The notes under the pieces: model-generated
The model's database searches: none
What the model was told of the DNA's origin: nothing
What the model saw: the letters and a program-made list of their open reading frames with translations, nothing else
Virus record (IMG/VR): IMGVR_UViG_3300009103_000007
Coordinates: 1 to 64,000 of that record
From: a virus
Length of the DNA: 64,000 nt
Reading direction: 5' to 3' (one strand)
Shown here: in pieces, positions 4,997 to 10,388 of the stretch
Layout: each line of letters opens with the position of its first letter
Numbering within the stretch: position 1 is the stretch's first letter
Program-made: the position numbers and the translations under genes

Positions 4997-5026
4997 AGTT
5001 GAGGTGGTTGGGTTTGGCAGTTAAAG

Positions 5027-5395
5027 ATGGTATTTGATAATTCATTAAAGAAAAAACCTGAAAGGTTGAAAAGTTTAAATAAAGATTTCGACATATACTC
5101 TTCTCTAATTTCAGAAGAAAAGATAGATCGTAAGTTTTTCGAAAAATTAAAATTTCTAAAATTAGAGGAATTAATAGCTTTAAAACTTTCTTCAGCTTCA
5201 ATAGGAATTAAAGGAAAATTAATTAATTTTCCTTTAATTAAATTTATTTCAGATATCTCCAAGGAGGCCTGTGTTTTATTTGCTTTATCAAGTACTGACT
5301 CTAAAAGAGATGCGGCAATGATACTTGGAATTACGAAAAAAGAACTCAATCGCTTAATTAAAGTGTATGATATTGATTTAAAAAAGGAGAAATGA
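5027..5395 (+). CDS. Protein with C-terminal Fis-type helix-turn-helix
   Basis: KRDAAMILGITKKELNRLIKVYDI resembles the Fis/NtrC HTH consensus. GAGG SD upstream. Confidence 0.6.
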   Translation: MVFDNSLKKKPERLKSLNKDFDIYSSLISEEKIDRKFFEKLKFLKLEELIALKLSSASIGIKGKLINFPLIKFISDISKEACVLFALSSTDSKRDAAMILGITKKELNRLIKVYDIDLKKEK

Positions 5396-5505: not shown

Positions 5506-6132
5506 ATGGCTAAGATAAGGGGTCTGCAAGCTAAAAAAATTGCTCTTCACTTTAAAGGTGTTCTTGATGCTAAGAAATATGCTTTTTTTGAAAAAGGTGA
5601 TTATAATGTAAATATTATAGCGGTTAGAAACGGCTCAGGAAGAGCCGATATCTTTGATGACTTCATGAATGTTGTGTATAAAATAGATGGAGAGTGGGTT
5701 GTCGATTCTTATATAATAACAACTGAACCTGGACCTCGGATTTTACGTAGGCCACTGCAAAGCGTAGCTCACAAGGGCACTGCCATATTAGTGCCCGATC
5801 AATATCGTTCAACTTATCAAATCGGTCTTCATGGCGGAAAGCGAAAATATATTGCTATAGTTCAGAGAGGAGGCGAGGTGAAAGTCTGGAGAGACAACAA
5901 TCGAGATTCTAAGCCTGATTATGTGGGAGAAAAAGACGAAGGATGGTATGGTATAAATATCCACAGACATTGGGGTTCTGACGAAAAAGACTATACTGGA
6001 TCTGTGTCAGCCGGCTGCCAAGTGTTCCAGAGTAGTAAAGATTTTTACGAATTTATGGATACTTGCAATATTGCAGCCGAAAGGTGGAAAAATAGTTTTA
6101 CATATACACTCTTAGAAGAGAGGGACTTATAA
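5506..6132 (+). CDS. YkuD/L,D-transpeptidase-like cysteine enzyme, putative cell-wall hydrolase
   Basis: GINIH...SVSAGCQV matches the H-x(14-17)-S-x-G-C catalytic motif. Strong SD. Confidence 0.55.
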   Translation: MAKIRGLQAKKIALHFKGVLDAKKYAFFEKGDYNVNIIAVRNGSGRADIFDDFMNVVYKIDGEWVVDSYIITTEPGPRILRRPLQSVAHKGTAILVPDQYRSTYQIGLHGGKRKYIAIVQRGGEVKVWRDNNRDSKPDYVGEKDEGWYGINIHRHWGSDEKDYTGSVSAGCQVFQSSKDFYEFMDTCNIAAERWKNSFTYTLLEERDL

Positions 6133-7036: not shown

Positions 7037-7132
7037 ATGAAAGGGTTACTACATAGAATAGCAAATTTATTCAATGCAAAGCATTGCTGCTGCTGCTGTG
7101 GCTGTTGTTCATGCACTAGCGGCTGCTGTTAA
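7037..7132 (+). CDS. 31-aa cysteine-rich microprotein
   Basis: MKGLLHRIANLFNAKHCCCCCGCCSCTSGCC*, 10 Cys. Strong AGGAGGAGG SD before ATG 7037. Confidence 0.7.
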   Translation: MKGLLHRIANLFNAKHCCCCCGCCSCTSGCC

Positions 7133-7135
7133 ATC

Positions 7136-7531
7136 ATGAAATTGATAATGGAAAACTGGAAACGATTCTTAAAAGAAGCTGATTGGCCGCCGCGGCACCA
7201 TACAGATTCATTCGGCCATGCTGGCACCTCTGGTTTAGGTGAAGATGAAGACGCGTCAGAATTGGCTCGCAAATTAATGGTAGTTATACGTACTCCAACG
7301 GATTTTTGCCAAGAAACCCCAGAAGACGAAGATTGTTTTAGTGCTGACTTTTTGGTAAATTTGTTGAAGAACAGAAATACGCCCGGATTTGATTGGCCCG
7401 AAGACGTCGAAACACCGGAAGAGTTGGCGTTATATTTGTGTTCTCGCGAAGGTCGTAATAGTGAGTGGAGTTGGGTTGCGGAGGAGGCAGTTCAAAAATA
7501 TCTTCAACTAGGTGAAGAAGGGAAGCTTTAG
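7136..7531 (+). CDS. Hypothetical protein with class-I leader MKLIMENW
   Basis: MKLIMENWKRFLKE-A. The last base of its TAG stop is G1 of the tmRNA. Confidence 0.7.
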   Translation: MKLIMENWKRFLKEADWPPRHHTDSFGHAGTSGLGEDEDASELARKLMVVIRTPTDFCQETPEDEDCFSADFLVNLLKNRNTPGFDWPEDVETPEELALYLCSREGRNSEWSWVAEEAVQKYLQLGEEGKL

Positions 7532-7835
7532 GGGGTGTAAAGGTATCGACAGGGTAAGGACAATAATGCGTGCAAGGCTGTGTGAGTGAGGTCACAGTAA
7601 AAACACTCAAAACTATAAATGCCAACGATGATGTTGAAATTTTCGAGGACTTTGCGCTTGCCGCATAGTTCTTGAGGAGGTTTTCCAGATACCTTCTTAA
7701 CCGAACATCTGGAATTGATATATTTGATAATTTATTTGCTAATTAACGGCTGTCTAGGGCCAGATCTAGACTAACCTTGTGAACGACGTATTGTTTGAGA
7801 TGTTCTGGACAGGAGTTCAATTCTCCTCACCTCCA
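7531..7835 (+). ncRNA. ssrA: tmRNA
   Basis: 5' GGGGGTG pairs with CACCTCC-A and includes the G3.U alanine wobble. T-arm AGGAG-TTCAATT-CTCCT. 5' GGTATCGAC motif. Internal tag ORF ends LAA. CCA is not encoded. Confidence 0.95.
7621..7668 (+). other. tmRNA tag reading frame ANDDVEIFEDFALAA*
   Basis: Resume codon GCC after ATAAAT. AND start and ALAA end are typical of ssrA tags. Confidence 0.9.
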
Positions 7836-7845
7836 AATCCACCCA

Positions 7846-7893
7846 AAACTTTGGGCGTTTCCACTGATGGAGATGTCCAAAGTTTTTTATTTT
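7846..7893 (+). terminator. Intrinsic terminator-like hairpin after tmRNA
   Basis: 18-bp stem (7846-7863/7868-7885) with three G.U pairs, CTGA loop, then a T-rich tract. Confidence 0.6.
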
Positions 7894-7912
7894 GCGGAGC
7901 ATTTGATAAATG

Positions 7913-8006: not shown

Positions 8007-8058
8007 GTGACTCTCGCCACCTCCACCAACTTTTCTTATTTTGGAAACTATTTAATAT
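8007..8058 (+). repeat. Cassette repeat R1: tmRNA 3'-end fragment, T-tract, ACTATTTA motif
   Basis: GTGACTCTCGCCACCTCCACCAACTTTTCTTATTTTGGAAACTATTTAATAT. Colinear with R4 and R5; differences are transitions only. Confidence 0.95.
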
Positions 8059-8998: not shown

Positions 8999-9037
8999 GC
9001 CACCTCCACCAACTTTTCTCTTATTTGGAACTAATTA
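8999..9037 (+). repeat. Cassette repeat R2 (5'-truncated)
   Basis: GCCACCTCCACCAACTTTTCTCTTATTTGGAACTAATTA. A second ACTATTTA lies at 9048-9055. Confidence 0.9.
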
Positions 9038-9323: not shown

Positions 9324-9357
9324 ATAACTCCCGCCACCTCCACCAACTTTTTACTTT
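9324..9357 (+). repeat. Cassette repeat R3 (no late-promoter motif)
   Basis: ATAACTCCCGCCACCTCCACCAACTTTTTACTTT, running into a sigma70-like promoter. Confidence 0.9.
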
Positions 9358-9970: not shown

Positions 9971-10022
9971 ATAACTCCCGCCACCTCCACCAACTTTTCT
10001 TACTTTGGAGACTACTTAATAT
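9971..10022 (+). repeat. Cassette repeat R4
   Basis: ATAACTCCCGCCACCTCCACCAACTTTTCTTACTTTGGAGACTACTTAATAT, 48/52 identical to R5. Confidence 0.95.
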
Positions 10023-10340: not shown

Positions 10341-10388
10341 CCCCCGCCACCTCCACCAATTTTTCTTATTTTGGAGACTATTTAATAT
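10337..10388 (+). repeat. Cassette repeat R5
   Basis: ATAACCCCCGCCACCTCCACCAATTTTTCTTATTTTGGAGACTATTTAATAT. Confidence 0.95.

Follow-up and report, generated by a model that had tools for sequence, protein, structure and literature searches.

The analysis of a 64,000-nucleotide stretch of DNA from an uncultured marine phage (hereafter the window; it covers the first 64 kb of an IMG/VR record with a length of 121 kb and a completeness of about 67%) reveals a protein-coding gene, ORF 7136, and a tmRNA gene that overlap by exactly one base, since the G that closes the TAG stop codon of the former, G7531, is also G1 of the latter. Given the likely co-transcription of both genes, loss of the stop codon upon RNase P cleavage is likely to be the physical outcome of tmRNA maturation. 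We consider it probable that this loss is a tolerated side effect of compaction with co-transcription and not a regulatory coupling that has been selected for. The features on which this reading is built are compiled in Table 1.

Table 1. Positions of the genes and signals around the junction of ORF 7136 and the tmRNA in the window.
Feature	Coordinates	Strand	Source
Candidate operon promoter, TTGGCA-16-GATAAT (10/12), in the nearest real intergenic gap upstream	5014..5041	+	Promoter scan; assignment inferred
Gene of a 31-aa Cys-rich peptide, strong SD, stop 3 nt before ATG 7136	7037..7132	+	Sequence, ORF list
ORF 7136, gene of a 131-aa acidic protein with MKLIMENW leader, three conserved Cys and conserved C-terminus EGK[L/V/I]	7136..7531	+	ORF list, homologues
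TAG stop whose G is tmRNA G1	7529..7531	+	Sequence; 5' end at 7531 by ARAGORN and Infernal
One-piece tmRNA	7531..7835	+	ARAGORN + Infernal RF00023
Tag reading frame, GCC resume codon to TAG, encoding ANDDVEIFEDFALAA	7621..7668	+	ARAGORN (91-138 of gene), codons from sequence
Intrinsic-terminator-like hairpin (19 pairs) with U tract, beginning 9 nt past the tmRNA	7845..7894	+	Scan, fold

The shared base and the tmRNA

The letters at the junction read GAA GGG AAG CTT TAG, followed directly by GGGGTGTAAAGG. A preliminary description of this DNA had ended ORF 7136 at T7529, A7530 and G7531 and had used the G3.U pair of the acceptor stem to place G1 at 7531; the sequence and the ORF list agree with the first placement, and the second is upheld by the alignment of the acceptor stem and by two independent programs, ARAGORN and Infernal with Rfam RF00023, which set the same register. 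The layout is therefore that of a coding sequence whose stop lies at or inside a mature RNA encoded downstream on the same strand, as in the smpB-ssrA pair of Carsonella. A spacing of -1 is the limit for such an arrangement, because tighter packing would cost either the stop or G1.

The tmRNA matches the full RF00023 model (positions 1-374) over 7531-7836 with 107 bits and an E value of 7.9e-41, the gathering score being 47. ARAGORN calls the gene at 7531-7835. In the Rfam alignment, bases 7531-7537 (GGGGGUG) pair with 7828-7834 (CACCUCC) in a 7-bp acceptor stem that includes the G3.U alanine identity pair, and A7835 is the discriminator. The T-arm, which adjoins this stem, is regular (AGGAG/CUCCU, loop UUCAAUU). 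The predicted tag, ANDDVEIFEDFALAA, has the hydrophobic ...LAA proteolysis signal followed by a stop codon, and it is kept with small changes in eight related loci (L027, L029, L032, L044 and L188-L191). The hairpin that follows the gene (7845-7886) folds with -25.5 kcal/mol (z = -5.1), and none of 200 shuffled sequences was as stable.

The CCA end is not encoded in the window, where A7835 is followed by AATCC. The tmRNA of L027 also lacks it (..CCTCCA-AATCC, window 7835-7840), while it is encoded in the close relatives L043 (first copy, L043:1200-1204) and L021, which indicates that the route of 3' maturation differs within the clade. This tmRNA is the only one in the whole 121-kb record, and a SmpB gene was not found in the same 67% complete record. 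A search for the host by means of the tmRNA 5' end gave zero matches among 185,579 species genomes. The 3' strand of the acceptor stem, CACCTCCA, recurs in five more copies downstream (window 8018-8025, 9001-9008, 9335-9342, 9982-9989 and 10348-10355), with seven matches in the window against 1.25 expected; these downstream copies are repeats of the tmRNA tail.

The upstream gene and its transcription

ORF 7136 is, to judge from its pattern of substitutions, a real and selected gene. It has full-length homologues with 97% (L043), 67-69% (P0002/L042) and 53% (L044) identity, in addition to P0004 and P0005, and these proteins, which we call family A, all end in EGK plus L, V or I, the window protein ending in GEEGKL. 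Between divergent pairs of the family pN is 0.18-0.31 while pS is saturated (about 0.8), and dN/dS is about 0.12 for L042 against L044; a pN so far below a saturated pS, together with the full-length homologues, argues that the gene is real. The synonymous sites of the last 40 codons show the same saturation as those before them (pS 0.58-0.90), so that an additional nucleotide constraint or a hidden conserved element is absent there. Reading the TAG as a recoded codon was set aside, because table 11 leaves long ORFs open, with lengths of up to 4299 aa.

Searches of Pfam and PHROG gave no family for the protein, a profile search of 1.84 billion proteins returned only about six members plus leader-only or marginal matches, and a search of viral contigs with the ORF peptide matched the N-terminal leader only; the informative relative loci come from one metagenome scan. 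An AF2 model from four sequences is helical and poor (pLDDT 57), too poor for a fold search. A role as a phage SmpB or tmRNA partner was rejected, since the protein is acidic and helical and does not match SmpB, and since a SmpB gene was not found in the 67% complete record. The leader is exchangeable within the family, being MKLIMENW... in the window and L043 and MPKFY...PRYFL.ET in L042, L044 and P0005, and ORF 7136 is one among many interchangeable leader-bearing “cassette” genes. Both leaders (window 7136-7180; L042:5001-5060; L044:180-240) end in an L-x-E motif, as MKLIMENW..FL.E and MPKFY..PRYFL.ET, which we presume to resemble the capsid-targeting sequences of T4.

The gene lies at the end of a tightly packed series. 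From position 5506 to the tmRNA, the genes are separated by 11, 4, 13, 3 and -1 nt. ORF 7136 lacks an SD, and its start codon follows the stop codon of the gene for the 31-aa peptide at a distance of 3 nt, which suggests that its translation is probably coupled to that of the peptide. Homologues of the peptide stand directly before the tmRNA in L060, L071, L021 and L018 (at 0, +1, 15 and 34 bases, respectively); from these arrangements, ORF 7136 looks as if it had been inserted between the peptide gene and the tmRNA in the window.

Every tmRNA of the clade was scored for its best sigma-70-type match within 90 nt upstream of G1, a scan to which phage-specific promoters of the middle and late types would be invisible. 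In the window, this interval holds no sigma-70-type promoter above background, and the best match reaches 7/12 (in L043, whose sequence in this interval is nearly identical to that of the window). The clade tmRNAs that are abutted by an ORF, L043 included, have best matches of 6-8/12 at scattered positions, compared with a median of 7 in random 90-nt windows of the same loci. The stand-alone tmRNAs (L029 and, in L019 and L054, the second copy) reach 9-10/12 with TTGAAT-17-TATAAT or TTGATC-17-TATATT, whose -10 element ends at a distance of precisely 11 nt from G1, and L024 has this promoter as well. The scan found a strong terminator after the tmRNA and no convincing one before it. These results sustain the earlier remark that a separate promoter is not evident between the two genes, and they make it likely, as judged from the sequence, that ORF 7136 and the tmRNA are co-transcribed.

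It would follow from a promoter in the 3' part of ORF 7136, either of the host sigma-70 or of a phage-specific type, that the tmRNA is transcribed on its own and that the overlap is inconsequential beyond a short leader trimmed by RNase P, a reading that we regard as improbable; its corollary, that the message of the ORF mostly ends elsewhere or reads through, seems to us equally doubtful. The candidates are TCGAAA-18-TATATT (9/12) at 7407-7436 and a weak TTGCnn-17-TATyTT (7-8/12) that all four homologues have at 28-31 nt from G1 and that may act as a weak promoter, and the promoter types of this phage group may not fit a sigma-70-type scan. Nevertheless, neither match rises above the background of random 90-nt windows from these loci, and both fall on conserved amino-acid codons (the second coincides with W-V-A and Y codons) in a region whose last 40 codons are saturated at synonymous sites. 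Moreover, a motif at a constant distance is not shared by the unrelated ORFs in front of this same tmRNA, while the stand-alone copies have an obvious promoter at 11 nt, and read-through from upstream would persist in any case, a terminator before the tmRNA being absent. An embedded promoter was rejected on these grounds, with nothing above background before G1 and no excess of synonymous conservation.

With co-transcription likely, because of the missing promoter before G1 and the terminator after the tmRNA, RNase P should leave a message that ends in ...CUU-UA. This end had been predicted in the preliminary description, and the letters at the junction agree with it. In the sequence of events that we favor, the tmRNA would be the last element of a polycistronic transcript, probably an early one, and the polymerase, having started at a promoter further upstream that is probably an early one, would pass ORF 7136 and the tmRNA and stop at the hairpin at 7845-7886. 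The first ribosomes, trailing the polymerase, would terminate normally at the UAG, because the acceptor stem needs about 300 nt more of transcription to form. By analogy with secG-leuU, the terminator would be removed first and the cut 5' of G7531 made second; once the acceptor stem has formed, cleavage by the host RNase P would produce an upstream polycistronic RNA ending in ...CUU-UA-3'OH. Both the cleavage and the co-transcription are steps that we infer from the sequence.

Ribosomes left on the last cistron would then run to the cut end, stall and need rescue. Tagging by tmRNA-SmpB would give ...GEEGKL-A-ANDDVEIFEDFALAA or the equivalent with the host tag, while factors of the ArfA/ArfB type would release the complete 131-aa protein; the cut message would decay fast from its unprotected 3' end. 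In trans-translation, the alanine carried by the tmRNA is added before the encoded tag, as established for the AANDENYALAA of E. coli. The fusion expected earlier, in which the tag directly followed ...GEEGKL, had the right tag and lacked this alanine.

Spacing and conservation among relatives

To describe the spacing, we use d, the number of bases between the upstream stop codon and G1 of the tmRNA. In the tmRNA clade, a d of -1 occurs with three unrelated ORF bodies (family A and the ORFs of L189 and L190, the latter two also leader-bearing), d = 0 in L188, L191, L066 and L060, and d = +1 in L044, L050 and L071. About nine junctions have a d of 5-9, and the remaining ones have a d of 15-34 or a promoter of their own, the range in the clade being from -1 to more than 20 nt. 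The junctions between an ORF and the next leader gene likewise pile up at -1, 0 and +1. A d of 1 or less is found in 11 of the 26 tmRNA junctions (42%) and in 14 of the 55 leader-gene junctions (25%; Fisher p = 0.20), and a d of -1 in 4/26 and 5/55, respectively (p = 0.46), both samples being small and phylogenetically non-independent. A statistical enrichment of the overlap is not supported by these counts: the tmRNA stands as close to its neighbor as the other genes of the operon do to theirs, and its tight spacing is not demonstrably special.

The tRNA genes of the same phage loci have comparable junctions, 11 of the 40 with a long upstream ORF lying at -3 to +1; in one of these loci, the TAG of a 440-codon ORF shares G1 of a tRNA-Ser. 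In a separate phage lineage, the TAG of an HTH gene shares G1 of a 77-nt TLD-only RNA, an overlap that is kept across 51% protein identity. Such “mini-tmRNAs” (77 nt, 70-75 bits, CCA encoded) were observed at L015:1480-1556, L034, L039, L097 and L148:182-258(-), wedged between the HTH gene, which is terminase-small-subunit-like, and a next gene whose SD begins a few bases past the CCA. Mycobacteriophage DS6A is the published precedent of a TLD-only phage tmRNA (PMC4131195). A further single-base overlap was seen at L176:15-1605, where the TAG of a gene for a 416-aa DUF1501 protein (430 bits) shares G1 of a 341-nt tmRNA; this contig is possibly host DNA on a provirus contig, and the overlap would then lie outside the phage cassette regions. 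Three unrelated overlapping ORFs (L189:3511-3516, L190:3770-3775 and L176:1260-1265) end in GCT-TA/G, an alanine codon and the stop, which may be due to chance or to a preference of RNase P in the leader.

Within family A, the four loci with known context adjoin the 5' end of a tmRNA directly, and they differ in what the junction holds. L043 has the same TAG/G junction and a complete, though unusual, tmRNA of 454 nt. L042 keeps the TAG/G, but only the first 46 nt of the tmRNA follow before another gene, and the stretch is 98% identical to L019, whose complete tmRNA with its own promoter sits 1.2 kb further; since L042 has a remnant only, no RNase P site is expected there and the stop would stay intact. 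L044, whose ORF is 53% identical, has a TAA, a spacer C and then G1 of a complete tmRNA (133 bits). The overlap together with an intact tmRNA is consequently found only in the lineage of the window and L043 among three independent lineages, and the stop-less state, as far as the sequences indicate, is not a conserved requirement. Conservation in relatives, which had been proposed as a check, holds for L043 and breaks down at the L044 spacer and the L042 remnant; likewise, a spacer in relatives, which was to count against the coupling of the two genes, occurs in L044 while the other three family-A loci of known context have TAG/G1.

The surroundings of these loci hold several further tmRNA forms. 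At L043:899-2098, two tmRNA genes flank the family-A ORF, and the second of them (454 nt, 85 bits) carries an SD and a 61-codon ORF (MSNKESGYG...) in place of the pseudoknots, along with an altered T-loop; L024:117-565 shares this long form (449 nt, 114 bits). Fragments of 30-46 nt from the tmRNA 5' end mark the right-hand border of cassette genes that precede a complete tmRNA (L019:1546-1591, L042:5414-5459, L190:3304-3333 and L061:1058-). From these fragments, it looks as if cassettes were inserted at G1 by recombination with the tmRNA 5' end as homology arm, which mirrors the repeats of the tmRNA 3' tail downstream.

The preliminary description had gone further, proposing that the overlap couples the level of the protein to tmRNA processing. 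In its purposeful, arfA-like version, each maturation of a tmRNA would yield one stop-less message for the cassette protein, and we find this unlikely; also unlikely, in our estimation, is the more detailed form in which the protein is tagged and degraded during active trans-translation and accumulates, through release of the ArfA/ArfB type, once rescue is exhausted. The physical prerequisites look satisfied, with the overlap, the missing promoter before G1 and the terminator all in place, and the coding sequence of the complete protein would still be present in the stop-less message. The TAG/G1 junction recurs with the three unrelated ORFs of the clade and in the separate HTH lineage, and four of the four family-A loci of known context stand directly on the tmRNA 5' end. 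That such logic exists is proven by arfA (PMC10107115), and Hudson et al. (PMC4131195) proposed the same feedback for the smpB of Carsonella.

Against this stand the intact TAA and spacer base of L044 and the junction of L042, which has no functional tmRNA behind it. In the clade, junctions with a d of 0 and of +1 occur as often as those with a d of -1, and the spacing is not significantly tighter than at ordinary gene junctions. Retention of the overlap is expected even if it has no function, because TA is part of a stop codon that uncut transcripts cannot do without and G1 is under the constraint of the tmRNA, which leaves only a rare indel, as in L044, to separate them; its conservation was therefore set aside as uninformative about function. 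Exonucleolytic decay also yields stop-less messages after the RNase P cut irrespective of a spacer. In secG-leuU it proceeds into the coding region despite the spacer, which implies that such messages arise whatever the spacing and that the shared base adds little. With L044, L042, the ordinary spacing and the decay of secG taken together, the claim that the overlap couples the protein level to tmRNA processing is left unsupported. We accordingly retain compaction as the explanation, with the reservation that the numerically tighter tmRNA junctions and the recurrence of TAG/G1 with unrelated ORFs and in a second lineage could reflect undetected selection.

A broader version would extend the coupling to the marine T4-like phages of the whole clade, making the site 5' of G1 a cassette slot whose occupant is deliberately rendered stop-less by RNase P as an arfA-like read-out of rescue capacity; we give it little credence. 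If it were true, each tmRNA made would be matched by one stop-less message and, more broadly, these phages might have a tmRNA on account of the stop-less messages that the punctuation of their own RNA generates. Highly improbable, finally, is a repair in the manner of mitochondria, in which the host poly(A) polymerase extends ...UA to UAA and restores normal termination: the UA of the cut end is the same as in incomplete mitochondrial stops and the secG fragment that RNase P sets free is a substrate of the PAP I of E. coli (PMC2241853), but the presence of PAP I here rests on a host for which no genome matched among 185,579, such polyadenylation in E. coli favors decay and has no known part in supporting translation (PMC2241853), and the relatives with d = 0 and d = +1 have no need of an added A.

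Comparison with known systems

The value of this locus, in which compaction remains our preferred reading, is that of a clean natural test case, since a single base is shared, the complete protein is encoded and relatives provide the variants with 0 and +1 nt. If RNase P cuts here, the phage routinely makes a message that its own or the host tmRNA must clear, and a real cut would supply one definite substrate for the tmRNAs that phages encode, the role of which still awaits an explanation.

In mitochondria, the excision of tRNA-like elements leaves messages that end in U or UA, and polyadenylation completes the stop codon; this tRNA punctuation with incomplete stop codons was reportedly described for animal mitochondria by Ojala, Montoya and Attardi in 1981. 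The DNA there lacks a complete stop, whereas the phage DNA encodes a complete TAG by sharing G1.

A further parallel is the secG-leuU transcript of E. coli (Mohanty and Kushner 2007/2008, PMC2241853), in which RNase P separates the mRNA from the tRNA and the terminator delays the cut. The phage locus has the same layout of a protein gene, a tRNA-like gene and a Rho-independent terminator on what would be one transcript, with neither promoter nor terminator detected in between, and the RNase P cut and decay from the 3' end would be alike. After the cut, the half-life of the secG mRNA is below 30 s, and of its mapped 3' ends about 80% fall within the coding sequence, in spite of a 14-nt spacer (PMC2241853). 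That spacer leaves the stop of secG intact, whereas the cut in the phage would remove the last base of the stop.

In E. coli, RNase III produces the stop-less message of arfA, and trans-translation represses it (PMC10107115; Garza-Sanchez et al. 2011, cited in PMC4131195). Common to both, for the phage as a proposal, are the removal of the stop by an endonuclease and the tagging of the product by tmRNA unless rescue is limiting. They differ in that the cleavage hairpin of arfA is conserved and required; in the phage the enzyme would be RNase P, and the feature that removes the stop is not conserved among homologues, as L044 (TAA, C, G1) and L042 (46-nt remnant) demonstrate.

The idea of a stop-less message with feedback was published by Hudson et al. 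in 2014 (PMC4131195) for the smpB-ssrA pair of Carsonella and for t(m)RNA overlaps in general, with 250 overlaps by an upstream CDS among 115,660 bacterial t(m)RNA genes. As in Carsonella, a coding sequence on the same strand ends at or inside the tmRNA gene and maturation is expected to leave a stop-less message; unlike there, the tmRNA belongs to a phage, a cassette protein takes the place of SmpB as the product of the upstream gene, and the two genes share just one base. Overlaps account for 4 of the 26 junctions in this phage clade, compared with roughly 0.2% in bacteria. With the concept already in print (PMC4131195), the layout is the expected extreme of phage gene packing, and the locus is a further phage case of the published kind of CDS-t(m)RNA overlap, most likely an incidental one, which is distinguished by its minimal overlap of 1 nt, by a stop-less message that would retain the coding sequence of the complete protein and by its natural variants with 0 and +1 nt.
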